49,970 nt of DNA, taken from contig JBBRLU010000001.1 in the NCBI GenBank assembly GCA_038231175.1, positions 1-49,970 on the forward strand, in the 5' to 3' direction. Positions 1-43,438 of the stretch are shown here, piece after piece. Made by a program: the position numbers and the translations under genes. The notes beneath the pieces were generated by a model. It did not search any database, had not been told where the DNA came from, and worked only from the letters and a program-made list of their open reading frames with translations. The stretch is from Candidatus Saccharimonadales bacterium. Lineage in GTDB: Bacteria; Patescibacteriota; Saccharimonadia; Saccharimonadales; UBA4665. The first letter of the stretch is position 1; each line of letters opens with the position of its first letter.

Positions 1-1
1 A

Positions 2-3000
2 AGCCTCAGCCAGACGCTGCCTGTGGCCGTTCAGGGCAACATCACCAAGACCGGCGCCCTGACCGCTGGCTCGATTGCTGCCGGCTTTGGCACGATTAGC
101 ACCGCCAGCAACATTACCACCCGTACCGCTATCCAGGGTGGCACAGTTACCGCTACCGGTGCCCTCAGTGGTAACAGCCTCAGTATCAATGCTGGTGCCT
201 TCGCCGTCAGCAGCACCGGCGCGATAACGGCTGCTACCGGCATCACCACCACCGGCAACGTCAGCCAGACCGGCACCGGTACATTCAGCACCGGCACTGG
301 CGCTGTCAGCTTAAATGGTGCTGCTACTGCCAGCAGCACCTTAGCGGTGCAGGGCGCTGGTGGCCTGACCTTGGGCGTCGCTAGCACCACCAGTGGCCTG
401 CTCAACTTTGCCAGCAGCACCAGTGCCAACATCGCTAGCTTGCAAGCTGCTGCCCCGACCGGTACCGGTACCGGCACCTACACCTTGCCAGCCCTTGTCG
501 GCGGTACCAGCGACTTCATCTGTGTCAAGAACATCAATAACTGTAACGGCGTCAGCGCCACCGGCGGCAGCGCCAACTACGTCGCCCGCTTTACCGGCAC
601 CAGCACCCTCGGTATCGGTACGCTCTACGACAACGGTAGCTTTGTCGGCGTCAATACCCAGACCAACAGCGGCACGCTTAGTATTCAGAGCAGCGGCGCT
701 GCTGCCAGCGCCATCTTTGCTCAAGGCGCTGCCAGCGCTACCACCCCAGTGGCCGTCATTAAGGGTGGCGCTACTCCGGGCATCGGTGGCGACTTACTAC
801 AGCTGCAAAGCTCAGCCGCTGTCGTCGCTAAGGTTGATGCCAGTGGTAACGTCCTCGGTACCAGCTTCGACACCGTCAGTGCCGGCGCCCTTAACATCGG
901 AACTACCAATGCTACCAGCATCGGCCTTAAGCAGAACACCAGCGTTACCGGCAGCTTGAGTGTCAGCAACGGCCTCAGCGTCAGCGCTGGCGCCAGCAGC
1001 TTTGCCGGCAACGTCAGCATCACCGGTGCCAACACCCTGTCCGTCGGCACCGGCGCCACCAGCCTCGGCGGCACGCTAGCTGTCACCGGTAGCAGCACCT
1101 TTACCGGTTTGGCCACCTTCAACGGCGGCGTCACCGTCGCTAATAACAGTAACTTCAGCCAGACCGGCAGCGGCAGCTTTAGCACCGGCACCGGCGCCAT
1201 CAGCCTTAACGGCGCCACCACTATCGGCAGTAGCTTGAACGTCAGCGGCGGTAGCGTTACCGTCGGCTCAGCCGGTCAGTTCACCATCGGTACCACTGGC
1301 AACGTCGCTACCAGCGGCTCCGTCCTCGGTGCCAGCTTCGATGTCAACGCCGCTGGTGCCCTCAACATCGGCACCACTAATGCCACCGTCATCAACCTTA
1401 ACAAGAACACCAGTATCACCGGCACGCTGACCCTGTCGACGCTGGGCGCTGCCGGTGCCACCCAGGTCTGTTACAACGCCAGTAACCAGATTGCCACCTG
1501 TTCCAGCACCTACGAAGCTACCACCGGCACCGACTTTATCCGCAACCAGACGGCGCAGCAGACTACCGCTAACTTCAACATCCAGGCCCGCGCTACCAGT
1601 GTGGCGGCCGTCATCCAGGGTGCCACCGGCCAGGATATTACCGATTTCGTCAGCGCTGGCGGCGCCACTGTCGCCAAGATCGACGCCAGCGGTAACCTGA
1701 CCGCCGTCCAGGGAACCTTCAGCGGTGCCGTCAACGCCAACGGTGGTGTCTTCCTCGGTGCCAACCAGAACCTGTCACTGGCTACCGGTACTGGCACCAT
1801 CACCCAAGGCTACAGCAACACCACCGGCTCGGCCGACAGCCGGACCATCGTCAACACCGCCACCAGCGGTGCCAGCACGGTCAACGGCATCGCGCTCAAC
1901 TTGAGCGGCTCGGCCAACGGCGTCGGCTCTAACACTACCACCGGTATCAACCTTGGCAACGTCGCCGCCGCTACCGGCAACGCCTTCTACGCCTTCAAGG
2001 TCGGTACCGGCTACGCCGATATCCTGAACTACAACGGCACCAGCGTCATTAACGGTTCTGGCCAGATTAACTTAGCCCAAGCTTTCGGTACGCTCGGCGT
2101 CAGCAACGGCGGTACCGGTACCACCAGCCTGACCAGCAACGGCATCCTCTTCGGCAATGGTACCGGCGCTATCCAAGCTACTTCATCACTCGCCGGCGCC
2201 GTCCTGGTAACCGATGCTACCACCAGCTTGCCATCGCTCAGCCAGACCCTACCGGTAGCCGTCCAGGGCAACATTACTAAGACCGGTGCCTTGACCGCCG
2301 GCTCGATTACCAGCTTCGGCACCATCAGCACCGCCAACACCATCGCCACCAGCAGCACCTTAAGTGGTGGTGTCGTCAACGCCACTACCGGCTTTACCAT
2401 CGCTGGCGCGGCTGCCAGCGGCCAATTCCTACGTGGTAACGGCACTAACTTTGTCTCGAGCACGATTGCCGGTACCGACATCGCGGGCACGCTCTTCACA
2501 CTGGCCGGCTCGGCCGGTACGGCCCAGAACGTCAGCGGTGGCAGCACCGTCTCGGTCCTGAAGGGTGCCAGCAACAACCTGACGACCACCGCTAGCGCCA
2601 CCAACACGCTGACCGTCGACATCATCAGCAACCCAAGCTTCAGCGGCGCCGTTACCAGCACCGCCAGCACCACCGGCTTGGTCGCTTCCGGCGCGCCGGT
2701 GGCCGGCAGCGGTATCACTTCGCTGTTACAACTTGGCGGTGCCATTGCCGCCGGTAACGTCAGCACCAACGGCGGTACCTACTTCGGTATCAACCAGCCG
2801 GCTACCGGCGCTGGCTCGGCTGCCGACTTCATCAACTTCCAGAACAACGGCATCGTCAAGCTACAAGTTACTAGCGCTGGCTTACTGAACGCCGCCGGTG
2901 GCTTTGCGGTTGGTGCTAACACGGGCAACTCACTTACCTGTGCTGCTGGCTTTGGTGTCACCGGTAGTACCTTTAACGGCGGTATTCTGACCGCTGGCAG

Positions 3001-5923
3001 CTGTAACCAAACCGTTGCTACCTTACAGTCGGCTTACACTGCTTCTGGTGCGACTAATCCTCAGATTCTACTCAGCTCAGCTAACGGCGGTATCAAGATC
3101 CAGGACGGTACGACCCCAGTTACTGGTAACTTAATCCAGATTTCTAACAATGGTGGAACTACCAATTACTTCGGCGTCAGCAGCAGCGCCGTCAGCATCA
3201 CTGACGCCTTGAACGTAACTGGCGGCTACACCCAGAGCGGTACGGCCAGCAATACCTTCCTCGGTGCCACCACCTTTAGCGCCGCCGGTACCGGCGCCAG
3301 CGTTACGAACGGCTTTGCCGTTGGTACCACCAACCAATTCACCGTTAACGGCGCTGGTAACGTCGCTACCAGCGGCACCGTTGCCCAGAACTACAGCACC
3401 GCTAACGCCGGTGCTACCAACGTCCACAGCGTTAATGCTACTACTACTAACGCTACGGCTACGGCCGCTACCATCAACGGCAACAGCATCAGCCTTGTCG
3501 GCACCACCAACAGCCTCAGCACCAACATCCTCAACGCCGTCAACCTGACCAACGTTGCGCCGCTGACGGGCAACCAATTCAACGGTATCGTCATCGGTTC
3601 CGGTTATGATAACCCGATAACTATTGCCGGCAACTCGATCTTTACACCTGCTGGGATTATCCAGAACGGTGCCTTTAGTACCGGCACCACTTACAGCAAC
3701 ATCACCAAGATCGGCACCGTTACGGCCGGTGTTTGGAACGCTACCACAATCGCTCCAGCCTATGGCGGCACCGGCTCAACAGCTATCCCAACTAACGGCC
3801 AGCTCTTGATCGGTAACGGCGCAACTTACACTGCCGCCAGTTTAACGACTGGTGCGACCAGTGGCTTGACCCAGACTGCTGGCGCCGGTTCACTCGGCCT
3901 AGCCGTGAACTACGGTTCAGCCGCCAGTACTGCGGTCCAAGGTAACACTACCTTCACCTGTACTGGTGGCACCGGTAACTTAACCGGAGGCGCCAACGTC
4001 ATTACGCTTGGTACCGGTGGTACTTGTGGCACCATCAACACCGTGACGAACCCATCGTTCAACAGCGTTACCATTGCCAACACCACCAACACCAACACCG
4101 CCCTCGCTATCCAAAACGCTGCCGGCAATGCCTCACTCGCCTACGACACCGTCAGTGGCACGCTTAAGATCTACGACGTCAGCGTTACACCTCCAGTTAA
4201 CTACGCAGCAGTCAACTACACCGGTAACACTGCCACCTTTGCCGCTTCGGCCGGTATTACCCAGGTTGGCACCGGCACCGGTACGAATACGCTTAACCTG
4301 GTATCCGGTAGCGGTGGTATCAACGCCAGCGGCAACACCACTATCCAAGGTACTAGCACCTTCAACGTCCTTGGTGGTCTGACTACACTCAGCGCCGGCT
4401 TAACCGCGAGCGGTGCGGCCGTCAACCTCAACGCCTCATCCAACTTTGTAACTAACATTAACACCGGTACTTCAACTAGCAGTGTTGCTATCGGTAACTC
4501 GCTGAGTACTGGTACGACAATTCAAGGTAAATCCACGATTGCTGCCATTAATATCAACGGCTTTACAGTGCTTTCAAATACTGCTAACGCGACTACCTTC
4601 CAGGTCCAAAACGCCGCTGGGGCCACTATGTTGACTGTTGATACCACAAACACCGCCGATGGCTTTAACCTCGCTACCGAAGGCGGCGCTGAAAACGCCG
4701 GTACCTTCGCTACTAAGTTCACGGCCTTCGGTGCTGGACCAGTTATTAGCCGTGACATCACAGCTGGCGAAGTCCCAAGTGGTGGTGCGAGCGCTAAGGT
4801 TGCTACCACCGCCGCTGCTAACACCGGATTGCAGTACAATATTGGCGCCGCCCTAGCCGCCAGTACCACTTACAACGTTAGCTTTACCGTCAAGTCGAGT
4901 GTTGCCATGACGACCCAGCTCAAGCTAGACTACTACCGCCAAACCGGTTCGCTCGACGCCAGCTGTGTCAACGCCTTTACCGCCTTTACGGTGTCCACCA
5001 CTAGCTTTAGTAAAGTAAGCTGTTCGTTCACCACCAGTGCCACAGCCGGCGCAGCCACAGCCTTCCTAGCCATCTACCAGTCAGACGCCACGGCCCGCAA
5101 TATCTTCATCGATAACATCGCCATTGTTGCTCAGAACAACTCCAGCGCTGTTCAGACAACTGGTCAGCTGCGCGTCGGTGGTGCTACCGGCCAAGGCTTA
5201 ACGTTGTTCACTGTCGACAGCTTTGCTACAGCGCCGATTGCCAAGGGCACCAACACAATTAACAGCGCACTACTTGGCTCAATGTATTACGACACCACCA
5301 TCGGCAAGCTCCAGTGTTACGAAGCCAGCGGTTGGGGTGCCTGTGGTAGCTCGCCAAACGTGAGTGTTAACTTGATCCCTGAATACGTCGGCGCCGTCTT
5401 GCACGGTACCGGTATTGGCACCTTAACGTCTGACCTGTGTTCCAATCAGTTGGCCCTTAACACCGGTCTCTGTGCAGCCAGCGCCGACGACTACAATTAC
5501 TACCAGTGGACGTCACCGCAAGCTACTGGCCAGACCTACAGCATCTACGTCCGCTACCAACTACCAGCTACCTTCAAGAACTTCTCCGACGACAACACCG
5601 TCAAGCTGACGGCTCGTACTTCTAGCACTGCCACTGGTGGCGCCGCACCGCTCGCCAACGGCGTCCAATACACCATGTACTACACCAACAGCTCTACCGG
5701 CACCACCACCACTTGTGGTTCGACCACCACCGTTACTACCTCCGCCAACGCCTGGCAGACGGTATCACTCGGCGGCGCCGGCGAAACTAACTGTACGGCC
5801 GCCAGTGGTCTAACCGGTGGTCTTGGTCCTAACTCGATCGTGACCTACAAGATTGATGTCACCGCCAGCAGCACCTCAACGGCCTACGTCAGTAACCTGA
5901 GCTTCCTAACGATTGGCCAATAG
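2..5923 (+). CDS. Giant Gly/Thr/Ala/Ser-rich repeat surface fibre/adhesin-like protein, 5'-truncated by the window edge (more than 1973 codons visible)
   Basis: The frame is open from nt 2 (SLSQTLPVAVQGNITK...), and the same peptide recurs internally at nt ~2226-2350, so the GTG at 23 is not the true start. Degenerate beta-helix-like repeats (FSTGTGA[IV]SLNGA, ALNIGTTNAT, DASGN) and GGTG motifs are present. A jelly-roll/CBM-like segment lies at about nt 4660-5135 (ends FIDNIAIV). The C-terminal region carries paired cysteines. Stop codon TAG at 5921-5923. Confidence 0.85.
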   Translation, partial: SLSQTLPVAVQGNITKTGALTAGSIAAGFGTISTASNITTRTAIQGGTVTATGALSGNSLSINAGAFAVSSTGAITAATGITTTGNVSQTGTGTFSTGTGAVSLNGAATASSTLAVQGAGGLTLGVASTTSGLLNFASSTSANIASLQAAAPTGTGTGTYTLPALVGGTSDFICVKNINNCNGVSATGGSANYVARFTGTSTLGIGTLYDNGSFVGVNTQTNSGTLSIQSSGAAASAIFAQGAASATTPVAVIKGGATPGIGGDLLQLQSSAAVVAKVDASGNVLGTSFDTVSAGALNIGTTNATSIGLKQNTSVTGSLSVSNGLSVSAGASSFAGNVSITGANTLSVGTGATSLGGTLAVTGSSTFTGLATFNGGVTVANNSNFSQTGSGSFSTGTGAISLNGATTIGSSLNVSGGSVTVGSAGQFTIGTTGNVATSGSVLGASFDVNAAGALNIGTTNATVINLNKNTSITGTLTLSTLGAAGATQVCYNASNQIATCSSTYEATTGTDFIRNQTAQQTTANFNIQARATSVAAVIQGATGQDITDFVSAGGATVAKIDASGNLTAVQGTFSGAVNANGGVFLGANQNLSLATGTGTITQGYSNTTGSADSRTIVNTATSGASTVNGIALNLSGSANGVGSNTTTGINLGNVAAATGNAFYAFKVGTGYADILNYNGTSVINGSGQINLAQAFGTLGVSNGGTGTTSLTSNGILFGNGTGAIQATSSLAGAVLVTDATTSLPSLSQTLPVAVQGNITKTGALTAGSITSFGTISTANTIATSSTLSGGVVNATTGFTIAGAAASGQFLRGNGTNFVSSTIAGTDIAGTLFTLAGSAGTAQNVSGGSTVSVLKGASNNLTTTASATNTLTVDIISNPSFSGAVTSTASTTGLVASGAPVAGSGITSLLQLGGAIAAGNVSTNGGTYFGINQPATGAGSAADFINFQNNGIVKLQVTSAGLLNAAGGFAVGANTGNSLTCAAGFGVTGSTFNGGILTAGSCNQTVATLQSAYTASGATNPQILLSSANGGIKIQDGTTPVTGNLIQISNNGGTTNYFGVSSSAVSITDALNVTGGYTQSGTASNTFLGATTFSAAGTGASVTNGFAVGTTNQFTVNGAGNVATSGTVAQNYSTANAGATNVHSVNATTTNATATAATINGNSISLVGTTNSLSTNILNAVNLTNVAPLTGNQFNGIVIGSGYDNPITIAGNSIFTPAGIIQNGAFSTGTTYSNITKIGTVTAGVWNATTIAPAYGGTGSTAIPTNGQLLIGNGATYTAASLTTGATSGLTQTAGAGSLGLAVNYGSAASTAVQGNTTFTCTGGTGNLTGGANVITLGTGGTCGTINTVTNPSFNSVTIANTTNTNTALAIQNAAGNASLAYDTVSGTLKIYDVSVTPPVNYAAVNYTGNTATFAASAGITQVGTGTGTNTLNLVSGSGGINASGNTTIQGTSTFNVLGGLTTLSAGLTASGAAVNLNASSNFVTNINTGTSTSSVAIGNSLSTGTTIQGKSTIAAININGFTVLSNTANATTFQVQNAAGATMLTVDTTNTADGFNLATEGGAENAGTFATKFTAFGAGPVISRDITAGEVPSGGASAKVATTAAANTGLQYNIGAALAASTTYNVSFTVKSSVAMTTQLKLDYYRQTGSLDASCVNAFTAFTVSTTSFSKVSCSFTTSATAGAATAFLAIYQSDATARNIFIDNIAIVAQNNSSAVQTTGQLRVGGATGQGLTLFTVDSFATAPIAKGTNTINSALLGSMYYDTTIGKLQCYEASGWGACGSSPNVSVNLIPEYVGAVLHGTGIGTLTSDLCSNQLALNTGLCAASADDYNYYQWTSPQATGQTYSIYVRYQLPATFKNFSDDNTVKLTARTSSTATGGAAPLANGVQYTMYYTNSSTGTTTTCGSTTTVTTSANAWQTVSLGGAGETNCTAASGLTGGLGPNSIVTYKIDVTASSTSTAYVSNLSFLTIGQ

Positions 5924-5969
5924 GTTGACGCCCGGGCGGGGCAGGGACTAGCTCACCGGATGCCGCTTA

Positions 5970-5978
5970 TGGTACAAT
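5970..5978 (+). promoter_or_regulatory. Candidate extended -10 promoter (TGGTACAAT) for the Kelch-repeat gene
   Basis: TGGTACAAT matches TGnTAnAAT in the 100-nt gap between the fibre gene and the ATG at 6024. There is no good -35. AGGAG lies further downstream. Confidence 0.3.
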
Positions 5979-6023
5979 TGCGGTACACGGAGACACCAAC
6001 ACTAGGAGCAAAAAACAGAAAAA

Positions 6024-9000
6024 ATGGACTACCCAACAAGGCCTCGCCTAGCCGACGCGCCACCGGCAGCGTTAGCGCCGGCTGTGGTCCAAGCGGCCTC
6101 TGTTACGGCACCTAAAACAATATCCCTTCAGATTAGATTACCGCGGTCATGGGCTCGACCGCTGCGCTGGCTCCACCAGAATGCCCAGGCCCACCGCTAC
6201 GTAGTCCGCTTTGGGGTGGCTGTGGTCATCAGTACGATTTTAGTTGGTGAGGTCATCCCGCTCATCCAACCGCGCCTAGCTGCCAAGGCCTATGCCTACG
6301 AAGACGCCGCTTCGCTGTTACCAGATAAAAATGGAGCCATGGGCGGGTTACTACGGCTTGATGATAAAACCCAAGAATTCACTTTTAATGCTGGCTATGA
6401 TCCATTTGCCGCCAACCCCGGTGGGCTGAGTAACACTGGTGGCGCCCTAATAAGTGCGACGGCCCACGTCGATGGCAGCAAAGGCGTCCAAGTAACCGAC
6501 CCAACCAATAAGGTCGACTTTACCATCAAGCCAAAATTTGACCTGCTGCCTGGCCACAAAGATGGCAACCGCCTGATCTACCCATTAGCCGATCGCAGCG
6601 GCTGGCTAGTCTACACCATGCAGGCCCGCGGTGTTAAAGAAGACGTTATTCTAAACCGCAGTAATGGCGATTCGGCCAAGTATGCCTACAACTTGGTCCT
6701 GGGTGATGCCTTTGCCGCCCGACTCCTCCCCAGCGGTGACATCGGCATCTACGGCTCGAGCCTGCCAATAAACGGCCAAGTCAGTACTAGCAATGATAAA
6801 GATGCCCAGCTGTTAATTAAAGTCCGCAAACAAGCGGTAAAAAATAATTTGTTATACACTCTGCCAGCGCCATACGTAAAGGGTATCCATAATAAGGAAG
6901 CTAGCGTCAAAACTAATTACAGCTTGAAGGGCAGCGTGCTGAGCGTTAACGTGTCGGGGCTCAAGCACGCCAGCTACCCACTCACCATCGACCCGAGTGT
7001 TTACGTTAAGAGCGCCCAAAAACTTATGCGTGGTAACAACGAAACCAACGTCGACTTTGACGTCACCAACAACCAGATTTTGAAAGGTTCGGTAACGGGT
7101 GCCCGTATTCCTGATTGGTCGGTCGGTCCAAACAGCCTACCGGGTAAAGTCTGGAACGCCGGTGTGGTCGTGGCCGGCGGCTTTATTTACGTCATTGGTG
7201 GTAACAGTGGCAGCGCCGATTTGTCGACCGTTTACTGGGCTCAGCTCGATACTGTTCTAGCTAGTACCAACGCTAATTATCAAGATATCGGTACCTGGCA
7301 AACCAACGCCGGTTATAATTTACCTAACGCCCGAGTAGGGATAGGAGCTATCGCCTATAACGGTTACTTGTTTGCGATTGGTGGGCAGGGCGCCAGTTGT
7401 AGCTCGGGTGCCACCGCTGGCAGCACCACGGTCTGTAACACCGTTTATACCAGCAAGCTAGGCGCCAATGGCGAGCCTAATACCTGGGTGCAGCGTGGTA
7501 ACCTGTCGACCGAACGTCGCTATGCCGGTGTCGCTGCCTTTGAGAACCGGATGTACTTATATGGAGGCCAAAGCGGTGCCAGTGGCTATACTGGTAGCGT
7601 CGCCACATCCGAATACGCCGAAATAAACCCCGATGGCTCTCTGGGTACCTGGACCACAACTGGCGCCGGCAGCCAGCTATCGACCGCTCGCTACGGCCTG
7701 AGCGCCATGGCCTACAATGGCTATGTCTATACGCTCGGTGGGCGTACAGCCGGCGGCGCCGTCAATACCGTCGAATACGCCAAAATTACCTCGACCGGGC
7801 TCAACACCTGGCAAGCCACCAACGGCTTCACGACCGGTCGGCTGAGCCTTGGTGGCGCAATCGCTACGGCCCTCAATGGTTATATGTACGTTTCCGGTGG
7901 CTGTACGACCACAGATGCCAATGGTAACTGTACCGCCAATGCCACCGACCTTCAGGTGGCCAGTATAAACTCCGATGGCACATTATCGACCTGGACCACG
8001 CAGCAGCAAGTCAACAACGTTACGCCGACTAGTATTAGCCGGACATCGTACGGTGGCGGACTGGTTGCTTGGCGGGGCACCATTTATTCAGTGGGCGGTT
8101 GCAGCGCCGCTATGGTTACCAATAATTGCCCGGCTGCCTCGACTCTAACCACCAACGTCTGGGGGGTTGTAACTGATGACGGCTTTGTTGGGCCATCACA
8201 GTCAGGCACTGGTGTGGCGACGCCGTTGCCAGCAGCCGCTGGAGGCTTGGCTGTTGGGGTGGTTATCAATAACGGTTACATCTACTCGGTAGGTGGATGT
8301 ACCATTACATCGGGAGCGTGCACCTCCACCGCCGGTACGATTTACTATATGCCGATAGCTAGCAACGGCTCCATAGGTACTACCTGGGCAGTAACTACGA
8401 AAGGAATAGGCCAGGCTGCTGGTGCTGCCGTAGGGCTAGCAGCTATCGGCATTGCGGTATTTAATAATACAATGTTTGTTACCGGTGGTGAGACCAGTGG
8501 TGGTGGTGCCTCAGCCAACACTTATTCAGCACCGATTAATCCCTCAGGTGATATCACTACCAACTGGGCAACTGCTACCGGTACCAGCAGCGCGCTAGCC
8601 GCTGCAGTACTCAGTCCTTTTATGTTTGCCCGCACTAATTTAACGACACCTAGCCAAGGTTATCTATATACCGTGGGCGGTTGTACCGGCACTACGTCGT
8701 CGATTGGCTGCACTGGTTATGTGGCAACGGTGCGACGCTGTAATATCACAGCCACCGGTGTAACAGCCGCCAGCTGCGCCAATCAAACGATAATCCTACC
8801 CAATACCGGTATCGGCATCTTTGGTGGTGCTGTGTACGGTAACTTCATCTATGTGGCTGGTGGCGCCAATGGCGCCGGTGCTGCCCAAACGAATACCGTT
8901 TATTACGCAAAATTCGATGCCAGCGGCAACTTGGTTAACCCGACAGATGGCACCGCCGCCAGCGGCTTTAAATTAGCTACCGGCACCTTAACGGAAATCC

Positions 9001-10790
9001 GTCGACGTACCGCCGCTTTTGCTGTTAATGGCTATTTGTATGTTTTGGCCGGTCACGATGGTGGTGCTAACGTGACCTTGAGCGATATGCAGATTGGTAA
9101 AATTAATACCGAAACCGGGGACATTACGGCCTTTAGTGCCAACGCCAATTATCCAAACAGCAACCCGGTCCCCTATGCTATTACCGCCCGTTGGAACTAT
9201 AGTGGCGCCGCCGCCAATGGCAATATTTATGTGATTGGTGGCTGTAGCAATGGCAGCCCGCCCAACACCTGTGGAACGGCCGGGGTAGATCGCGTCACGC
9301 AGTATATACAGGTCTATAACAACTACAGTGGTTCACCTGCCCAATACAGCAGCACTAATGCTCCGGCTACCACCAGGATTGGAGGCAGTTCAGTAATTTA
9401 TAATGGCCGCATGTACGAAGCTGGGGGCTGTTCCGACATTGCTTGTACAACGGTTACAAATAGCCTCGAGGAGGCGCCAATAAATGCTGATGGAACCCTA
9501 GGCACCTGGACAACAACTGGCATGACGGCCATGGGTACTGCCCGCACCTTCTTTAAATTACTGACAGCCAATGGATATTTGTATGCGTTAGGAGGGCAGG
9601 GCACGAGTGCAGCAACCAGTGCTTTGTCTACGACCGAACGGGCCACGATCGCCACCAACGGCACGGTCGGCGCCTGGACGGCCGATACCACACTTGGTAG
9701 CGCGGGTGGCTCGACCGCGGCGGTAGTAGCCAACTCGCGCAGCGCGCTAAGCGGAGTAGTCTATAACGGCTATATTTATGCAGCGGGTGGTTACAACCAA
9801 GCCAATGCCAGTCAGTCGACCATCTATTACGCGTTGTTAGACACCTCGACCGGTGCCATCGGCACCTGGGCAGCTACGACTAACACCTTTGCTACGGCCC
9901 GTAGCGGCCTCAGTGTGATTGCCTATAACGCTACTTTTTACGTGCTCGGCGGCTTTGATGGCACTAACTATTTACCCGATGTCCAATTTTCAAAGATTAC
10001 AAATGTCGGCAATATTACTACCGCCTTTGCTTTTACCACCAACATGCCCCAGCCCATAAGCAACGCCGTCGTTTACGCCGCTAATGGCTTCATGTACGTC
10101 ATTGGCGGGCGCTCGGCGGCAACTACGTGTACCAACAACACATACGTCAATAATATTATAGCCAACTCTACCATCGTCAATGGTAATAATCCGAGTGGTC
10201 TCGGCAACTGGTCGCAAACCAGCGTAGTCTATGGCACGGCCGCCTCCAGCGCTCGTTATGGGGCCTCGGTAGCCTATGACTCTGGTAAAGTTTACATCTT
10301 AGGCGGCGGTTGTTCGGCCATGGTAGGTGCCACGCCGGCCGACAAAGCTTACTATTCGACCATTCAAGCCCAGCCACAGATCGCAAAATACGGTTATGTT
10401 ATCGACGCAGGCAGTGATGTCTTCCCATCCAAAACCTTATTCAACGGTCTAGACAACGGCATTGGGGCCAGCTGGCAGCTCAATTACCGTTCTTCAACCG
10501 CAGCCGCTGCAGCTTGGGGCCAGAATACTATTTTTGGTAAAACTACACTCGGTACGCCGCAGGCCTATGTGCCGGTAGACAGTGCCGGCACCAACACTAA
10601 CTTCTCGCAGTACCACTATATCGAATTGACGATTGATGTCTCCCAAGCCTTTGGTTTTCCGGAAGACGTCAGTCGTGGCCCGACCATCACCGACTTAACC
10701 TTCCAGTTTACTTCCGATCCGAGCAAGCGTTTACGTAACGGCAAAACCTTCATTGGCGGCGAACAGCAGCCATTGGATACACCGTTCTAG
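6024..10790 (+). CDS. Membrane-anchored Kelch-repeat (beta-propeller) surface protein, 1588 aa
   Basis: N-terminal Pro/Ala-rich segment followed by a hydrophobic helix (YVVRFGVAVVISTILVGEVIPLI). I count 18 blade signatures of the type NGY[ILV]Y..GG (GGFIYVIGG, NGYLFAIGG, NRMYLYGG, NGYVYTLGG ... SGKVYILGG), each typically followed by W/T-rich strands (GTWTT, NTWQ). Confidence 0.85.
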   Translation: MDYPTRPRLADAPPAALAPAVVQAASVTAPKTISLQIRLPRSWARPLRWLHQNAQAHRYVVRFGVAVVISTILVGEVIPLIQPRLAAKAYAYEDAASLLPDKNGAMGGLLRLDDKTQEFTFNAGYDPFAANPGGLSNTGGALISATAHVDGSKGVQVTDPTNKVDFTIKPKFDLLPGHKDGNRLIYPLADRSGWLVYTMQARGVKEDVILNRSNGDSAKYAYNLVLGDAFAARLLPSGDIGIYGSSLPINGQVSTSNDKDAQLLIKVRKQAVKNNLLYTLPAPYVKGIHNKEASVKTNYSLKGSVLSVNVSGLKHASYPLTIDPSVYVKSAQKLMRGNNETNVDFDVTNNQILKGSVTGARIPDWSVGPNSLPGKVWNAGVVVAGGFIYVIGGNSGSADLSTVYWAQLDTVLASTNANYQDIGTWQTNAGYNLPNARVGIGAIAYNGYLFAIGGQGASCSSGATAGSTTVCNTVYTSKLGANGEPNTWVQRGNLSTERRYAGVAAFENRMYLYGGQSGASGYTGSVATSEYAEINPDGSLGTWTTTGAGSQLSTARYGLSAMAYNGYVYTLGGRTAGGAVNTVEYAKITSTGLNTWQATNGFTTGRLSLGGAIATALNGYMYVSGGCTTTDANGNCTANATDLQVASINSDGTLSTWTTQQQVNNVTPTSISRTSYGGGLVAWRGTIYSVGGCSAAMVTNNCPAASTLTTNVWGVVTDDGFVGPSQSGTGVATPLPAAAGGLAVGVVINNGYIYSVGGCTITSGACTSTAGTIYYMPIASNGSIGTTWAVTTKGIGQAAGAAVGLAAIGIAVFNNTMFVTGGETSGGGASANTYSAPINPSGDITTNWATATGTSSALAAAVLSPFMFARTNLTTPSQGYLYTVGGCTGTTSSIGCTGYVATVRRCNITATGVTAASCANQTIILPNTGIGIFGGAVYGNFIYVAGGANGAGAAQTNTVYYAKFDASGNLVNPTDGTAASGFKLATGTLTEIRRRTAAFAVNGYLYVLAGHDGGANVTLSDMQIGKINTETGDITAFSANANYPNSNPVPYAITARWNYSGAAANGNIYVIGGCSNGSPPNTCGTAGVDRVTQYIQVYNNYSGSPAQYSSTNAPATTRIGGSSVIYNGRMYEAGGCSDIACTTVTNSLEEAPINADGTLGTWTTTGMTAMGTARTFFKLLTANGYLYALGGQGTSAATSALSTTERATIATNGTVGAWTADTTLGSAGGSTAAVVANSRSALSGVVYNGYIYAAGGYNQANASQSTIYYALLDTSTGAIGTWAATTNTFATARSGLSVIAYNATFYVLGGFDGTNYLPDVQFSKITNVGNITTAFAFTTNMPQPISNAVVYAANGFMYVIGGRSAATTCTNNTYVNNIIANSTIVNGNNPSGLGNWSQTSVVYGTAASSARYGASVAYDSGKVYILGGGCSAMVGATPADKAYYSTIQAQPQIAKYGYVIDAGSDVFPSKTLFNGLDNGIGASWQLNYRSSTAAAAAWGQNTIFGKTTLGTPQAYVPVDSAGTNTNFSQYHYIELTIDVSQAFGFPEDVSRGPTITDLTFQFTSDPSKRLRNGKTFIGGEQQPLDTPF

Positions 10791-10799
10791 GAACAGATT

Positions 10800-11837
10800 A
10801 TGTTTAAGAAGATATTAAAAACCAGCACCGAAACATCAGACCCTCAGCAGGCCGAGTCGTGGGCAAAATGGCTTAGCGATGAGCCGTTTGAGGCGCCCCA
10901 CATAGCTACGCCACCGCCTCAGTCGGAAGCTATAGCAACGCCTCAGCCGGCCGCCTCAGCTGCGCCCGCAAGCCCGCCGCGTGGCCAAACCTACCGGGCT
11001 AATTATTGCCAACCGGCGCGTAGCTATACGGCTTCGCCGCCAGTCCTTCAGCGGCGTCCAGCGACTGTAATGCCGCCCACGGCTACTGCGCCAGTAGCGA
11101 ACGCCGCGTCTGCGCCCATGGGGGCTAATGAACCACAAGCCACGCCTACCGTCTCACTACAGATTTCTATTCCGGCCGTCAAGGTGCCACACGGCGTGCG
11201 AACAACCGCTGTCGCAGCCCAACGGCTAGCTGTCATATATGCTCGCGCTATACAGCGCCTGGCCTTAACAGTCTATACCTCGGCTAAGGCCCACAAGCGA
11301 GCAACTAGCGGGCTAGTTGTAGTCGGCGCAGTTGTAGCCGTAGGCTTGATAGGTGCCCAAGTTTTTACACAAATCAAGCATTCGCCGGGGACTCGAGCAA
11401 TACCAACTGCAGCGGCTAGCGCTGTACAACCAGCGGCTGATCCGACGGTACCTGCGCAGCCGACGTTCGCCGTTGTGATTCCTAAATCGCGTCCAGAACT
11501 GGCTCAGGCCACAGCTGGAAAATCGTTCTTTGACAGTAAACGTAACAGCTATAGCTACAATGATGACTTCCAATACAGGACTATCCTAGTCAGTGAGCAG
11601 TTAGTACCAGCCAAATTTAAGACCGAGGGCGAAGCCCTGACGAACGTTGCACAACAAGTGGGCGCTAAAGAAGTTATGGCCACGGCTAACGGCGCCGCAT
11701 ATCTGGGTACCGATGCCAAATCTGGCCAGCAAACCATCGTCTATGTTACGAAAGGCATTCTGATATTCATCCAAAGTCCTTTCAGTTACACGGCCCTCAA
11801 ATGGCAACCGTATCTAGAAGCTTTACACCAGGTGTGA
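10800..11837 (+). CDS. Single-pass membrane protein, function unknown (Pro/Ala-rich N-terminus, one TM helix, ~150-aa C-terminal domain)
   Basis: The ATG lies 9 nt after the Kelch gene stop. TM segment is GLVVVGAVVAVGLIGAQVF. It shares a TVSLQISIP motif with the Kelch protein N-terminus (TISLQIRLP). No family recognised. Confidence 0.6.
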   Translation: MFKKILKTSTETSDPQQAESWAKWLSDEPFEAPHIATPPPQSEAIATPQPAASAAPASPPRGQTYRANYCQPARSYTASPPVLQRRPATVMPPTATAPVANAASAPMGANEPQATPTVSLQISIPAVKVPHGVRTTAVAAQRLAVIYARAIQRLALTVYTSAKAHKRATSGLVVVGAVVAVGLIGAQVFTQIKHSPGTRAIPTAAASAVQPAADPTVPAQPTFAVVIPKSRPELAQATAGKSFFDSKRNSYSYNDDFQYRTILVSEQLVPAKFKTEGEALTNVAQQVGAKEVMATANGAAYLGTDAKSGQQTIVYVTKGILIFIQSPFSYTALKWQPYLEALHQV

Positions 11838-11875
11838 CCAAAAAATTTATCCACAGGATTTTAGCAATAAAACAC

Positions 11876-11905
11876 TTTACAACCAGGGTAGTAGGGGTCT
11901 ACAAT
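11876..11905 (+). promoter_or_regulatory. Sigma-70-type promoter, TTTACA-18 nt-TACAAT, with no start codon nearby
   Basis: TTTACA at 11876-11881 and TACAAT at 11900-11905 with an 18-nt spacer. No ATG/GTG with a Shine-Dalgarno sequence (SD) follows within 40 nt. Confidence 0.45.
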
Positions 11906-12084
11906 TAAGTTCAGATTACACAAAACAAACAGCAGATCAAACCAATAAACAAATGAACACAAATAACTCAACTATTAGACGCTTCGCCTTTGGTGCCTCT
12001 CCGTAACTCCTACGGATAGGTAGCCAGTAAACTAAAACCAAAAACTATAGCAAATAAACAAAAAATCAAAAAAGGGCCAAGATC

Positions 12085-12207
12085 GTGAAACGAGACAAAA
12101 AACAACAAGACGACCGATTATTAAAACAGTTAACTCGTCAGGAAAGAAAACAGCAGGAAGCTTTAAGAAAACTTATCTTAAGCGACAAGCTATTCCAGTT
12201 CGTGTGA
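12085..12207 (+). CDS. Possible 40-aa Lys/Gln/Arg-rich small ORF (GTG start) inside the A-rich unit
   Basis: VKRDKKQQDDRLLKQLTRQERKQQEALRKLILSDKLFQFV. Weak SD (AAGGG) about 9 nt upstream. The composition could simply reflect the A-rich DNA. Confidence 0.2.
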   Translation: MKRDKKQQDDRLLKQLTRQERKQQEALRKLILSDKLFQFV

Positions 12208-12245
12208 TCCGTTAAGCCCCGTTAGAAAAACAAAAACAAACATAT

Positions 12246-12275
12246 AAAAACGCCAGGTCCAAACTGGCGTTTTTT
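12246..12275 (+). terminator. Rho-independent terminator
   Basis: AAAAACGCCAG-gtccaaa-CTGGCGTTTTTT: GC-rich stem with a 7-nt loop, followed by a T-run and preceded by an A-run. Confidence 0.75.
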
Positions 12276-12347
12276 CTGCATCTGTTAAAGTATGCTATGG
12301 CTAGTACTATACGGCTATTTTTATATAGTTTTGATAGCTTGAGCGGC

Positions 12348-12375
12348 TTGGCGCGGCGCTCGAAAATGCTATACT
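12348..12375 (+). promoter_or_regulatory. parA promoter, TTGGCG-16 nt-(TGc)TATACT; the start codon is 12 nt downstream
   Basis: Extended -10 TGCTATACT at 12367-12375. No SD before the ATG at 12388. Confidence 0.45.
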
Positions 12376-12387
12376 TACACTAAGCTT

Positions 12388-13146
12388 ATGACACAAAAAA
12401 TTATTGCCGTGGTGAATCAAAAGGGAGGAGTGGGGAAGACCACAACCACTATTAACGTTGCCGCTCAGTTAGCCTCTGCCGGCCATTCGGTTTTACTAGC
12501 CGACCTAGATCCGCAGGGCAACGCTACTAGCGGATTGGGTCTCGATAAACACGGTCCGGTAACAATGTATGAATTACTATGCCACGACCAGCAACTGCCG
12601 CAAGCGGTGCTGGAAACCAACGTCGCACAATTATTCGTCATTAGTGCCAATACCAATCTGGCCGGCGCCGAAATCGAGCTCGTCGACCGCGAGCGCCGCG
12701 AATTTGCCTTGCAGCAGGTGCTGCAAGCCGCCGACTACGACTACATCGTCATCGATTGTCCGCCGTCGCTCGGTCTGCTGACTATCAATGCCTTGACGGC
12801 TGCCACTCAGGTACTGATGCCGGTCCAGGCCGAATACTACGCACTGGAAGGTCTTAGCCAATTATTAAACACCGTCCAAGCCGTCAAGCACAGCACCAAC
12901 CCCGAGCTCGAACTATTAGGCGTCGTCCTGACGATGTACGACAAGCGCACCAGCCTCAGCGAACAAGTCCGTGACGAAGTTAAAAAATACTTCGGCGAGA
13001 ATCTATTCACGACCGTCATCCCGCGCAACATCCGGCTGGCCGAAGCACCAAGCTACGGCAAGACTATCTTTGAACACGATAAGTGGAGTAAGGGTGCCCG
13101 GGCCTACAAAGCGCTGACTAAGGAAATTATCAGCCGAACCCAATAA
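12388..13146 (+). CDS. parA: ParA/Soj chromosome-partitioning ATPase
   Basis: Deviant Walker A NQKGGVGKTTT, DLDPQGN, IVIDCPPSLG; 252 aa, typical length. Confidence 0.92.
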   Translation: MTQKIIAVVNQKGGVGKTTTTINVAAQLASAGHSVLLADLDPQGNATSGLGLDKHGPVTMYELLCHDQQLPQAVLETNVAQLFVISANTNLAGAEIELVDRERREFALQQVLQAADYDYIVIDCPPSLGLLTINALTAATQVLMPVQAEYYALEGLSQLLNTVQAVKHSTNPELELLGVVLTMYDKRTSLSEQVRDEVKKYFGENLFTTVIPRNIRLAEAPSYGKTIFEHDKWSKGARAYKALTKEIISRTQ

Positions 13147-13167
13147 CTGGTGCGCCGCAACAGCGAC

Positions 13168-14037
13168 TTATTGTAACTGAGCTAGTATTTTGTGTAGTTC
13201 GTCGTCGGACCTGAACGTGATTTCCAAACGACCACCTTTGGCGGTGCGCTTAAGCTGGACCGCTGCGCCCAGCTGTTTGGCCAGGGCCCTGGTAGCCGGG
13301 GTTTCGGTTTCGATGCGTTGGCGGACGGCGGCCGGCTCTTTGACACCGGCTTTGAGGCTGGCGACGTAGCGCTCGGCTTGGCGGACGCTCCAAGCTTGAT
13401 TGATAATGTGCTGGAGTAGGCTAGCTTGTTCCTTATCCTGGCCCTTCAAGGCTAAGATTGCTCGGGCGTGGCCCTCGCTGATCTGGTGACTGGCCAAGGC
13501 CGCCTGGGCGGCAGTCGGTAATTGTAATAAGCGCACCAGATTATTGACGGTCGACGGAGCTTTGCCGAGTCGTTTGGCGATGACTTCGTAGGCCACCGAG
13601 AACTGATCGTGCAAGCGGTGCAGACTGAGGGCCTGTTCGAGTGGGCTTAAGTCGACGCGCTGGACGTTTTCGACCAGGGCGATCTCTAATTGCTGCAATT
13701 CCTTTAAGCTGCGGACGATGGCCGGCACGGTGTTTAAGCCGGCCAGTTTAGCGGCTCGCCAGCGGCGCTCGCCGGCTACGATCTGGTACCGCTTGTTGCC
13801 GAGTGATCGGACTACCAGCGGCAACAGCACGCCGTGCTCGGTAATCGAGTCGGCCAGTTCTTGCAAGGCACCGGCGTCAAAGTGACGGCGCGGTTGCCTG
13901 GCGTCGGCCTCGACGCTATCGAGCGCCAGCTTCTGGATCCGCTCATCGTCATTCGGCAGCAGCAGCGTCTTGTCGAACGTCTGGGGCAACAAGGTTTCAA
14001 ACCCGCGTCCGAGACCCCGTTTTGGTGTTTGGCTCAT
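13168..14037 (-). CDS. parB: ParB/Spo0J partition protein
   Basis: ParB-box GERRWRAAKLAGL, an N-terminal RGLGRG motif, and an HTH region (SQEELAKRLGK-like: VAYEVIAKRLGKAPSTVNN). Confidence 0.9.
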   Translation of the reverse strand: MSQTPKRGLGRGFETLLPQTFDKTLLLPNDDERIQKLALDSVEADARQPRRHFDAGALQELADSITEHGVLLPLVVRSLGNKRYQIVAGERRWRAAKLAGLNTVPAIVRSLKELQQLEIALVENVQRVDLSPLEQALSLHRLHDQFSVAYEVIAKRLGKAPSTVNNLVRLLQLPTAAQAALASHQISEGHARAILALKGQDKEQASLLQHIINQAWSVRQAERYVASLKAGVKEPAAVRQRIETETPATRALAKQLGAAVQLKRTAKGGRLEITFRSDDELHKILAQLQ

Positions 14038-41031: not shown

Positions 41032-42363
41032 ATGAAGCATACCGTTCAAGAAATAGAGCTAGCTAATGGCGCCAAAGGCCTGCTGGTCCATATCCCTGAC
41101 GCCAGCGTCATGACCTTCGACATCAACTTCCGGGCCGGCGAATACCTGGTCGAAGCGGCCAAGTGGGAAGTACCCCACCTCATGGAGCACGTGCTACTCG
41201 GAGCCAACGAGCTAATTCCGCGGGCCCGCGATTTTCAAGCTGAGCTCGAAAAAAATGGTGCCTACAGTAACGCCACGACCGGTGTCTACGACATCAGTTA
41301 CGAAGCCGAATGTGCCGATTTTGAGTGGGACCGGGTGCTTGGACTGCTGCTGATCGCCATCGCCAAGCCGCTGTTCTTAGAAGAAGAATTCCAGGCCGAA
41401 TTCGGCAACGTCCAAGAGGAGATGGTGGCCCGTAGTAATAATCACTTCCGGCGCCTCAGTCTGGAAATGCGCAAGGCTTTGGGCCTGATCGCCAAGACCG
41501 ATGCCGAACGCCTGGAGCTGATGTCGAACGTCAACGTGGCCGACGTCCGCGCTCATTACCAACGGACACACCACACACCCAATATGCGCTTCGTCGTCGC
41601 CGGCAATCTGACGGCTGCCCGTAAGAGTATGCTCGAAAAATTGTTTGCCACGATCGAACTACCAACTAACGGTGAACGTTTTGAATTACCTTCAGAAATC
41701 CCAAAACACCTGGAAAAGCCGGTCTACGTGCCGAACGATAATGTCGAAAACCTGTATTTTTACATCGATACTTTCCAAAGCGGCCGCATCGATGACGGTG
41801 CTACCGACGCCCTCAATCTTATCAACACCATGCTCACCGAAACGCTGTACTCCAAGATTCTCGGTACCGCCCGCGAGCGTGGTCTGGTCTATGGTATGAG
41901 CTCCGGCCTAAGCCAGACCAGGGATGCCAGCAATTGGTGGTTCGGCGCCCAGGTATCTAATAAGAATGCCCCGGCGTTACTCGACATCGTCGTCGACGAG
42001 CTCGAGAAAGTCCTGATCGGCGACATTTCAGAGGACGAAATCGCCGCCACCAAACAGTACGCCTTGGGCCGCTTCCAACGCTCCGGTCAGACCGTCGGCG
42101 GTACCGCCGCCGGTTATTCCGGGCGCTATTTCTTCGACGAAGTCGTCGAAAATTACTACCAGATTCCGGCCCGCATCAAGGCCGTCACCAAGGACCAGAT
42201 AATAACCGTCGCCCGTTCGATGTTCGCCGAAAAAATGTGGGGTTTCGGTGTGCTTGGCAACTGCGGCGAGCAGTTCTCGATCGATCTGCGGCAACAACTC
42301 AAGCCGTTGTGGAGCGAAGCTCTCAAAAAGGCAGAGGCGGTGCACGATGGACGACCTGTCTAG
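41032..42363 (+). CDS. M16-family (pitrilysin/insulinase-like) zinc peptidase
   Basis: Inverted zincin motif HLMEH (HxxEH) near the N-terminus. 443 aa from the ATG at 41032. The ORF-track start at 40900 lies inside secA. Confidence 0.8.
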   Translation: MKHTVQEIELANGAKGLLVHIPDASVMTFDINFRAGEYLVEAAKWEVPHLMEHVLLGANELIPRARDFQAELEKNGAYSNATTGVYDISYEAECADFEWDRVLGLLLIAIAKPLFLEEEFQAEFGNVQEEMVARSNNHFRRLSLEMRKALGLIAKTDAERLELMSNVNVADVRAHYQRTHHTPNMRFVVAGNLTAARKSMLEKLFATIELPTNGERFELPSEIPKHLEKPVYVPNDNVENLYFYIDTFQSGRIDDGATDALNLINTMLTETLYSKILGTARERGLVYGMSSGLSQTRDASNWWFGAQVSNKNAPALLDIVVDELEKVLIGDISEDEIAATKQYALGRFQRSGQTVGGTAAGYSGRYFFDEVVENYYQIPARIKAVTKDQIITVARSMFAEKMWGFGVLGNCGEQFSIDLRQQLKPLWSEALKKAEAVHDGRPV

Positions 42364-43438
42364 TCAAGCCAGCCAACTGCAATCAGCCGTCCAGGCCGCC
42401 AGCGCCAGACTGACTATTCCAGCCCTACAAGTCGAACTAGCGACGTTGCAAAATCAGTCCGAAGCCCCGGACTTTTGGAATGATAATCTGCAGGCCCAAG
42501 CCGTCATGAAGCAGATCAGTAAGCTCGAGGCCCGGGTCGCTCCCTGGTTACAGCTACAATCGGCCGTGGCCGATCTGACGGAGCTAGCCGCGCTCAACGA
42601 CCCCCAAATGACCACCGAACTACAGACCCAGCTGGTGGCTGCCAGCCAGACGTTCGGCGCCCTTAAAGAAACCCTCAAACTGAATGGCCCCTACGACGAT
42701 TACGACGCCATCGTCAGCATTCACGCTGGGGCAGGGGGCACCGACGCCCAGGATTGGGCGGCCATGTTACTCCGGATGTACCTGCGATTCTGTGAGAAAC
42801 AGGGCTGGTCCTACCAGACGTTAGACGAATCGAGCGGCGACGAAGCCGGCCTCAAAAGCGTGACCCTGGAAATCAGCGGCAGCTTTGCCTACGGCAACTT
42901 AAAGAGTGAGCACGGCGTCCACCGACTTGTCCGGCTCAGTCCCTTTAACAGCGACAACCTACGCCAAACCAGCTTTGCCAAAGTCGAAGTCACGCCTAAG
43001 ATCGACAAGCCCGACGACCTGGTCATCGATGACAAAGAACTAAAGATCGACGTCTACCGCAGCGGTGGCCACGGTGGCCAAAGTGTCAATACCACCGATA
43101 GCGCCGTCCGCATAACCCACCTGCCAACCGGTTTGGTAGTGGCCATCCAGAACGAGCGCTCGCAGCTGCAGAACCGCGAGACGGCCATGACCATCCTGCG
43201 CGGCCGGCTGGCGGCTTTGCAGCTCGAACAGCACCAGGCCGCCGTCAGCGAGCTAAAGGGGCCGAACCAATCGGCCGAGTGGGGCAACCAGATCCGGTCG
43301 TACGTGCTCCACCCATACAAGCAGGTCAAAGATCTGCGCAGCCGCTACGAAACCAGTGACCCGGACGCCGTCCTCGACGGTAATCTCGACGAAATCATCG
43401 ACGCCTACCTAGAATACGCCCTCGCCGATAACGCCTAA
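42347..43438 (+). CDS. prfB: Peptide chain release factor 2 (single uninterrupted ORF)
   Basis: SPF tripeptide (RLVRLSPFNS) and GGQ ([21 protein letters not shown]). The ATG at 42347 overlaps the M16 gene by 17 nt. Confidence 0.93.
   Translation: MDDLSSQASQLQSAVQAASARLTIPALQVELATLQNQSEAPDFWNDNLQAQAVMKQISKLEARVAPWLQLQSAVADLTELAALNDPQMTTELQTQLVAASQTFGALKETLKLNGPYDDYDAIVSIHAGAGGTDAQDWAAMLLRMYLRFCEKQGWSYQTLDESSGDEAGLKSVTLEISGSFAYGNLKSEHGVHRLVRLSPFNSDNLRQTSFAKVEVTPKIDKPDDLVIDDKELKIDVYRSGGHGGQSVNTTDSAVRITHLPTGLVVAIQNERSQLQNRETAMTILRGRLAALQLEQHQAAVSELKGPNQSAEWGNQIRSYVLHPYKQVKDLRSRYETSDPDAVLDGNLDEIIDAYLEYALADNA

Follow-up and report, generated by a model that had tools for sequence, protein, structure and literature searches.

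Why would a bacterium with a genome of about 1 Mb give up roughly 1–2.5% of it to three surface proteins, and do these proteins act together? The question is raised by a contig of 49,970 nt from a Candidatus Saccharimonadales bacterium (JBBRLU010000001.1), which we analysed whole and call the window. Its first ~11.8 kb hold three genes, encoding a giant fibre, a Kelch protein and a small membrane protein (together, the trio; positions are in window numbering); with a 6,397-aa fibre, as in one relative, the same trio takes ~25 kb. An initial annotation, made from the letters alone, had read these genes as one operon for a multi-component cell-surface structure. The explanation that we favour, with about even confidence, is that the trio is a co-expressed, Saccharibacteria-specific, glycan-binding surface fibre apparatus.

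The arrangement of the trio was first compared with that in relatives. The Kelch protein has 355 scored relatives, 38–73% identical over near-full length, and every one with a named source belongs to Candidatus Saccharibacteria or Saccharimonadales. A species-representative scan, with one genome per species, confirmed Kelch relatives in 140 genome stretches, and 78 loci were fetched and kept. Their titles are almost all Saccharibacteria, Saccharimonadia or Saccharimonas; the few titled Limnocylindria, Pristimantibacillus or Parcubacteria are probably mis-binned. One of the carriers is Ca. Saccharimonas aalborgensis (L060). Named homologues and locus titles thus agree with the reduced-genome organism supposed by the initial annotation, the host being a Saccharibacterium (TM7) of the candidate phyla radiation (CPR). 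Queries against the open reading frames (ORFs) of these loci were the C-terminus of the fibre, the N- and C-domains of Kelch and an iterative profile of the small-protein C-domain. A word-based search with the 345-aa small protein gave one relative, and its family was recovered by synteny and iterative hidden Markov model searches. The order fibre-Kelch-small on one strand was found in all fetched loci with enough flank, except the locus L018. The gap between fibre and Kelch genes is 150 nt or less in 49 of the 66 loci having both (median 72 nt); in 76 loci the gene right after Kelch is a small-protein homologue, with a gap of 150 nt or less in 69 of them (median 21.5 nt). The genes flanking the trio vary between lineages. 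Loss of synteny in relatives, named by the initial annotation as an outcome that would speak against it, did not occur: order and strand are kept. The arrangement recurs and is therefore not due to chance.

ORF calls and translations confirmed the coordinates in the window, with three same-strand genes spaced by 100 nt and 9 nt (Table 1). The fibre stop TAG (5921-5923) precedes the Kelch ATG at 6024, and the Kelch stop TAG (10788-10790) precedes the small-gene ATG at 10800, with an AGGAA ahead of the small gene overlapping the Kelch stop codon. The fibre ORF is open to base 2 and hence 5′-truncated, so that its 5′ end does lie outside the window; since the window is the entire contig, the gene was cut by an assembly break. 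Positions 1-121 recur at 2237-2350 (81% DNA identity), 2.2 kb downstream within the fibre gene, and the protein motif LPVAVQGNITKTGALTAGSI is present twice in the window fibre. The contig assembly probably broke on such a fibre-internal repeat. An exact search for the window's Kelch protein, by which the missing DNA might have been recovered, gave no record. The other two products also proved to be as first described: a 1588-aa N-terminally anchored Kelch protein with 18 blades (one N-terminal hydrophobic segment, 18 YxxGG signatures) and a 345-aa single-pass protein (one segment in the hydropathy scan, at about aa 171-189). All three products are extracytoplasmic or membrane-anchored, in support of their proposed placing at the cell surface. 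None of them ends in an LPXTG signal; an LPxTG string occurs once, inside the Kelch protein (LPNTG, aa 925), and the C-termini (...LSFLTIGQ for the fibre, ...QQPLDTPF for Kelch, ...YLEALHQV for the small protein) are not those of sortase substrates.

Table 1. Genes of the trio and segments of their products, in window positions (TM, transmembrane; AF2, AlphaFold2; pLDDT, predicted local distance difference test; A1 to A9, alignments)
Feature	Positions	Strand	Description	Basis
Fibre gene, 3′ part	2..5923	+	1973 codons plus stop	ORF and translation
Fibre shaft	2..4678	+	T/G/A/S/N-rich, almost uncharged, paired Cys; length variable between species	
Fibre CBM_4_9 jelly-roll	4679..5146	+	aa ~1560-1715	Pfam, AF2 (pLDDT ~90), Foldseek
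Fibre C-terminal domain 2	5168..5920	+	aa ~1723-1973; CBM-like beta-sandwich	A2, A9; AF2
Kelch membrane protein gene	6024..10790	+	1588 aa, type II (N-in/C-out), 18 blades	
Kelch cytoplasmic tail and TM helix	6024..6266	+	aa 1-58 (TISLQIRLP), TM aa ~59-81	hydropathy
Kelch membrane-proximal N-domain	6279..7148	+	aa 86-375; motif MRGNNETN(I/V)DFDV	A1, A5
Eighteen Kelch blades	7149..10346	+	aa ~376-1441; three six-bladed propellers (modelled); conserved Cys pairs	
Kelch C-terminal beta-sandwich	10347..10712	+	aa ~1442-1563	A1, A6; AF2 strands, construct 1054-1175
Kelch C-terminal tail	10728..10787	+	near-invariant, predicted disordered	columns in A1, A3, A6
Small bitopic membrane protein gene	10800..11837	+	345 aa	
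Small-protein N-part and TM	within 10800..11837	+	aa 1-168 Pro/Ala-rich, TVSLQISIP; TM aa ~169-191	hydropathy
Small-protein C-terminal ectodomain	11475..11834	+	aa 226-345; weakly DUF4367-like	A4

A-x-A ends the Sec signal peptide with which the complete fibres of relatives begin, and directly after it comes a conserved N-domain with the motif ..(I/L)NFQ(G/A)RL...G..V.DG.YN..F.IY...WTE...V.NG..SV.LG. Searches of the PDB by sequence and profile gave nothing meaningful for this N-domain. As this signal peptide shows, the fibre is exported by Sec. In the window, residues 1-1480 of the shaft contain 17% T, 16% G, 14% A, 11% S and 9% N, and less than 3% D, E, K and R together. Eight close Cys pairs are present in the window fibre, those of the shaft being 174/181, 490/500, 980/1001 and 1320/1342. 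Self-BLAST of the shaft protein showed no clear periodic repeat, and at the DNA level only short repeats of 81–93% were seen. The idea that the shaft is N-glycosylated was dropped, as N-x-S/T sequons were not enriched (44, versus 38.5 ± 5.1 in shuffled sequences). Total fibre length in relatives ranges from ~950 to 6397 aa with both ends conserved, and an about six-fold variation in shaft length between conserved ends is as expected of a spacer. The longest fibre (P0366, L085 1-9651) is complete and among the largest bacterial proteins; its gene is followed directly by a Kelch gene (P0016) and a small gene for 293 aa.

The C-terminal end of the fibre points to sugars as a possible ligand. CBM_4_9 (PF02018) matched at fibre aa 1571-1682 with 31.2 bits, above the gathering cut-off of 25.9 (E 3e-7). 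The initial annotation had recognised no catalytic motif in the trio, and no enzyme family of Pfam or NCBIfam was matched; this one recognised domain of the fibre adds to its description. An AF2 monomer model of the last 493 residues (67-sequence alignment, pLDDT 78.7) has ~75 low-confidence shaft residues followed by two beta-sandwich domains. With Foldseek, both halves of this tandem aligned to the CBM22-1/CBM22-2 tandem of structure 4xup (E 1e-9), and further matches were CBM4-2, CBM16, SGBP-B and the C-terminal carbohydrate-binding modules (CBMs) of Vip3. Sequence and modelled jelly-roll fold agree in classing the CBM_4_9 domain as a carbohydrate-binding module, and sugar binding is predicted. 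Domain 2, by which the fibre family is recognised, carries the motif GSMYYDTT..QCYE..GWG.CG with three Cys pairs. When the last ~250 residues were used in an exhaustive profile search, 1292 cluster representatives were obtained, and in all 150 of these 1292 that were listed the domain is at the extreme C-terminus. Ten such proteins were looked up, and all are unnamed or called 'hypothetical protein'. The fibre has no relative among PHROG and NCBIfam families or PDB sequences. A 218-aa protein of a viral contig (L086 7791-8447; IMG/VR UViG_3300034378_000025) weakly matches the core of domain 2, with 33% identity over 88 aa including PEYxGAVL and YYxW; an 819-aa ORF comes after it.

In the Kelch protein, a hydropathy scan found one strong hydrophobic segment, near aa 63-81, with basic residues on its N-side. 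Downstream, 18 'Y-x-x-G-G' blade signatures are spread over aa 389-1424, and Pfam matches are Kelch_1 (E 1e-24) and Kelch_KLHDC2_KLHL20_DRC7 (E 8.5e-34). PDB sequence matches are KLHL proteins, Keap1 and designed SAKe proteins, that is, generic Kelch domains only. The AF2 model of aa 389-1588 (66-sequence alignment) reached a pLDDT of 83.2 and a predicted TM-score (pTM) of 0.86; its best Foldseek matches are the six-bladed KLHL12/17/20, Keap1, LZTR1 and designed SAKe6, with target-normalised TM-scores of at most 0.8. Three propellers of six blades each, packed as a single body, would account for this. Pfam, signatures, AF2 and Foldseek all assign the modelled protein to the Kelch-repeat beta-propeller superfamily. 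The Kelch protein is anchored by its N-terminal helix and displays propellers, beta-sandwich and flexible tail outside the cell. Its ectodomain contains nine close Cys pairs in the window, several of these Cys being invariant in relatives, and the pairing of Cys in both fibre and Kelch ectodomain is of the disulfide type.

The best-conserved parts of the Kelch protein are not its blades but three regions outside the propellers. The N-domain gave sub-threshold DUF7948 matches in 9 of 55 members. The C-terminal beta-sandwich, the most conserved part of the protein, gave sub-threshold TcdB_toxin_midN matches in 19 of 47 members, and neither domain has a meaningful PDB relative in sequence and profile searches. 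The tail, ...SDPSKRLR(N/H)GKTF.GG.QQPLDTPF, has a pLDDT below 50 for its last 20 residues and is a candidate docking peptide. All three regions look like protein-protein interfaces. No enzyme-specific family of Pfam, and no NCBIfam or PHROG family of any kind, matches the Kelch protein.

The small protein crosses the membrane once and has a small domain outside the cell. Its cytoplasmic part is of low complexity, and a short linker separates the TM helix from the 120-aa ectodomain, which is conserved across 67 aligned relatives. DUF4367 (PF14285) is matched by five of these 67 (best E 4.7e-5); the window copy has no Pfam match, nor any in PHROG or NCBIfam, and its ectodomain has no PDB sequence relative. 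The 'small anchor' of the initial annotation is a guess: the weak likeness to DUF4367 and the RseB C-domain would fit an accessory or a sensor role equally. A short motif is shared by the cytoplasmic parts of Kelch (ISLQIRLP, window 6120-6143, aa 33-40) and small protein (VSLQISIP, 11151-11174, aa 118-125). It has alternating hydrophobic residues, ends in Pro and precedes the TM helix by 20-50 residues. Of the small proteins, 34 of 76 fit a loose pattern made from it, as do 14 of 65 N-termini of Kelch, versus 20% of control ORFs.

Could the small protein then be a contact sensor, a bitopic protein of anti-sigma or RseB-like type that signals engagement of fibre and Kelch to the cytoplasm? The sub-threshold DUF4367 matches would be in line with this, as would the Southlakia protein SEML1_0325, of the same architecture, which maps to the RseB C-terminal domain in ECOD, and the Pro-ending motif could be a docking site common to Kelch and small protein. 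However, the cytoplasmic part, Pro/Ala-rich and of low complexity, carries no zf-HC2, RskA or other Pfam domain, no sigma factor or regulator is conserved beside the module, the DUF4367 link concerns only the five members above, and the motif is restricted to part of the family and has a loose pattern that a fifth of controls match. We consider signalling of this kind very unlikely. An anti-sigma factor of the zf-HC2/RskA type in particular was rejected, the 345-aa protein having no such Pfam match and no conserved flanking regulator.

How might the three proteins work as one glycan-binding apparatus? Once its signal peptide is cleaved, the fibre would keep no covalent or membrane anchor of its own. 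It must then be held at the surface, and the linked membrane proteins are the most economical candidates: the membrane-anchored Kelch platform, possibly with the small protein, would retain and organise the fibre there. The long uncharged shaft (~1 to 6 thousand residues) would project the twin lectin tip from a very small cell, and the tip would bind a cell-wall polysaccharide of a host or partner bacterium, so starting or stabilising episymbiotic attachment. Saccharibacteria in culture live on Actinobacteria, to which they are attached, and glycans of the host cell wall play a part in the binding of TM7x (PMC11623550); both facts favour a glycan-directed attachment fibre on a Kelch platform. 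We infer both the physical complex of the three proteins and the host-attachment function. A more elaborate version, which we find rather doubtful, makes the trio a distinct organelle: fibres of up to 6,400 residues would dock by their conserved end on the triple-Kelch platform, the tail of which would plug into the DUF4367-like domain of the small partner, and the whole would capture distant host glycans and be coupled to the cell via the shared cytoplasmic motifs.

Four observations weigh against a fibre-Kelch apparatus directed at hosts. First, unrelated genes are inserted within the trio in a few loci (parAB on the opposite strand in L011, beta-lactamase-like genes, secreted propeller-like proteins), so that strict co-transcription is not universal. 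Second, fibre paralogues of 815 aa (L083 8001-10448) and 846 aa (L084 8001-10541) have no adjoining Kelch gene. They share the signal peptide, N-domain and last domain of the fibre, are without CBM_4_9 and have the ATP synthase operon as neighbour, so that neither end of the fibre is reserved for a Kelch partner. Third, the lectin tip is ~40–50% identical across the group, as conserved as the rest, which fits a conserved ligand, and this might be the bacterium's own wall rather than that of a host. Fourth, 'Kelch' occurs nowhere in the annotation tables of the transposon sequencing (Tn-seq) study of Southlakia epibionticum, one annotated genome (PMC10633639 supplement); Southlakia being an obligate epibiont, the module is not needed for epibiosis generally.

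The first of these points divides the operon claim of the initial annotation: the tight spacing does recur in relatives, and single transcription cannot be extended to the few interrupted loci. From gene order and spacing, the trio appears to be an autonomous module with strong linkage, a compact operon in most cases though not in all.

The second and third points bear on the main rival explanation, in which polarity is reversed. The twin CBM end would anchor the fibre non-covalently to a glycopolymer of the cell's own wall, as SLH, WxL or GW modules do, the fibres would form an S-layer- or glycocalyx-like coat and the Kelch protein would be a membrane scaffold, all serving envelope integrity or spacing and not host capture. 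The reuse of the last 250-aa domain at the C-termini of many proteins of different length, paralogues included, is wall-anchor-like, and a tip that is conserved rather than diversified fits as well. Moreover, a gene for a WxL-interacting-protein-like, peptidoglycan-binding protein is found upstream of the module in ~30 relatives, and near-zero charge with high Thr/Ala is common in surface-layer proteins. On the other hand, Pfam found no SLH, WxL or other known wall-anchor domain in the trio, the conserved N-domain would become the outer end without any proposed task, no coat would need fibres nearly as long as 3-6 thousand residues, and a dedicated triple-propeller partner is left without reason. 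A coat on the cell's own envelope is thus unlikely in our estimate.

Do the three proteins belong together at all? Among bacterial Kelch propellers outside the cytoplasm are both enzymes and lectins, such as NanM and galactose oxidase. The Kelch protein alone could accordingly be a multivalent lectin or a glycan-processing nutrient enzyme and the fibre an independent adhesin, with the linkage reflecting co-regulation only. Some Kelch homologues are auto-named 'N-acetylneuraminic acid mutarotase' by JGI, and the tolerated insertions and the paralogues without Kelch point the same way. So does L018, where the sole full-length Kelch homologue (7571-12967) with neither an upstream fibre nor a downstream small gene in the fetched flanks was found, although this Kelch gene may be a rearranged or second copy. 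Yet order and adjacency are kept across lineages in which Kelch is only 35–45% identical and the neighbourhood changes, which exceeds usual linkage by co-regulation. Neither Pfam nor NCBIfam gave an enzyme family, and the invariant disordered tail and conserved non-propeller domains resemble interfaces with other proteins. We therefore regard separate roles as quite unlikely and keep the lectin-tipped fibre on a Kelch platform as the preferred reading.

The module has a varied genomic surrounding. In ~30 loci with short fibres, extra co-directional genes are present upstream (for example L030 1004-6272, L026 1024-6408 and L003 1208-6584). They encode two to three secreted proteins that are T/S-rich and paralogous, a WxLIP_PGBD-like protein of ~330 aa (21 of 27 members match WxLIP_PGBD) and an Ig-like protein of ~320 aa, the last two each having a TM helix at the C-terminus. 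The short-fibre clade would accordingly have a larger cluster of surface proteins. These genes are absent upstream in L006, L007 and L061. In the window, parA/parB (12388-14037) are directly downstream of the module, a ParA-like gene is close downstream in about 15 loci, and in L011 parAB occupies 7943-9606, between the fibre and Kelch genes. The module thus tends to have the partition locus as a neighbour and presumably lies near the origin. Small gene and parA are 550 nt apart, and the DNA between them contains a palindromic GC-rich hairpin flanked by an A-run and a T-run (12246-12274, AAAAACGCCAGGTCCAAACTGGCGTTTTT), which looks like a bidirectional terminator.

The remaining window is ordinary chromosome, with parA, parB, lepB, an LCP protein gene, htrA, prmC, prfA, rpmE, rpsB, tsf, frr, rseP, proS, greA, lysS, serS, secA and prfB. 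A prophage or mobile-element origin was rejected on this housekeeping context, which includes aminoacyl-tRNA synthetases. Scans of the window found no tRNA or Rfam element, and neither pilin features nor pilus genes are present in it. A link to type IV pili, for which a PilM/FtsA-like gene downstream in L003 was considered, was rejected, this gene not being conserved among the loci. The release factor 2 (RF2; prfB) ORF (42248-43438) has a GTG start and overlaps the preceding M16 peptidase ORF by ~115 nt; its PCRF domain begins only at residue 61 of the ORF as listed.

What would such an apparatus mean for the cell that carries it? Apart from type IV pili, little is known of the means by which CPR/Patescibacteria episymbionts locate and keep their hosts. 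The strains used as genetic models come from the mouth, and the module is apparently lacking in at least one of these, Southlakia. For environmental Saccharibacteria the trio, which many species conserve, is a concrete candidate for the surface apparatus, and it defines three protein families with no function assigned: the NFQGRL/MYYDTT fibre, the triple-Kelch membrane protein and the small DUF4367-like partner. Literature searches found no description of a fibre-Kelch-small module. Domain types and general purpose (surface fibre or adhesin) are known; the three-component arrangement is new and lineage-specific, with a function that we infer.

As anticipated by the initial annotation, no characterised adhesin or S-layer family was matched in Pfam, NCBIfam, PHROG and PDB-sequence searches, so that comparison with known systems has to be made by architecture. 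NanM, a sialic-acid mutarotase, and galactose oxidase have a single Kelch propeller with a defined catalytic site. Like the Kelch protein of the trio, they are extracytoplasmic Kelch propellers binding or acting on sugars; unlike them, it has three propellers, two unrelated conserved domains and a TM anchor. An enzyme of this type was rejected on family models, with no NCBIfam model and only generic Kelch Pfam matches. Two further candidates were rejected: an SLH-anchored S-layer protein, since the Pfam search of the three proteins gave no SLH, and a trimeric autotransporter adhesin, the JGI name of one fibre homologue, since no YadA_anchor or other Pfam domain of such adhesins was found and the C-terminus is a CBM-like beta-sandwich.

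Within Saccharibacteria, SEML1_0325 of Southlakia (350 aa, DUF4367 at 244-350, ECOD RseB C-domain) is non-essential (PMC10633639 supplement). It resembles the small protein by architecture, with a cytoplasmic N-part, one TM helix, an ectodomain of ~110-120 aa and a total of ~350 aa, but is not beside a fibre or Kelch gene. PilX2 of Nanosynbacter lyticus TM7x is a pilin with a beta-propeller, and its deletion lowers host binding (PMC11623550). PilX2 and PilY1 of Pseudomonas share with the Kelch protein beta-propeller ectodomains proposed as glycan-binding adhesins, in the case of PilX2 in an episymbiont; whereas PilX2 has, on a type IV pilus, one seven-bladed propeller of the RCC1 type, the Kelch protein would have three six-bladed Kelch propellers on a TM anchor.

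In BFVD, Foldseek matched the fibre tip to receptor-binding tail fibres and minor tail proteins of Arthrobacter and Bacillus phages that bear CenC-type CBMs at their tips, with E values of 1e-9 to 1e-11. This resemblance is at the fold level only, and the genes stand in a housekeeping context, not in a prophage. With no PHROG family and no tblastn match in 50,697 phage genome records, membership in a phage tail-fibre family was rejected.

The WxL/Csc clusters of Lactobacillales comprise WxL proteins and the WxL-interacting protein DUF916. The envelope of Saccharibacteria is of the monoderm type, and both systems would be multi-gene clusters for a non-covalent surface complex in a monoderm, the WxLIP_PGBD-like gene of the ~30 relatives adding to the likeness. 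In contrast, Csc clusters have no Kelch protein or giant fibre, and no WxL domain was detected in the upstream T/S-rich paralogues of relatives. In the lineages nearest to the window no WxLIP-like gene precedes the module, and the window's own upstream region lies beyond the contig end.

Mosaic adhesive trimer (MAT) fibres of Bdellovibrio bacteriovorus reportedly have a conserved end, a fibrous shaft and a C-terminal tip recognising prey or host envelopes. As proposed for the trio, a long surface fibre with conserved end, shaft and binding tip is found in a bacterium living on other bacteria, a likeness of architecture alone. The MAT fibres differ in their diverse tips, versus the conserved tip here, in belonging to a diderm and in the lack of Kelch or DUF4367 partner genes. 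By analogy, the trio would work most like such lectin-tipped fibre adhesins, MAT fibres and the receptor-binding fibres of phages, and its gene organisation recalls the WxL/Csc clusters.

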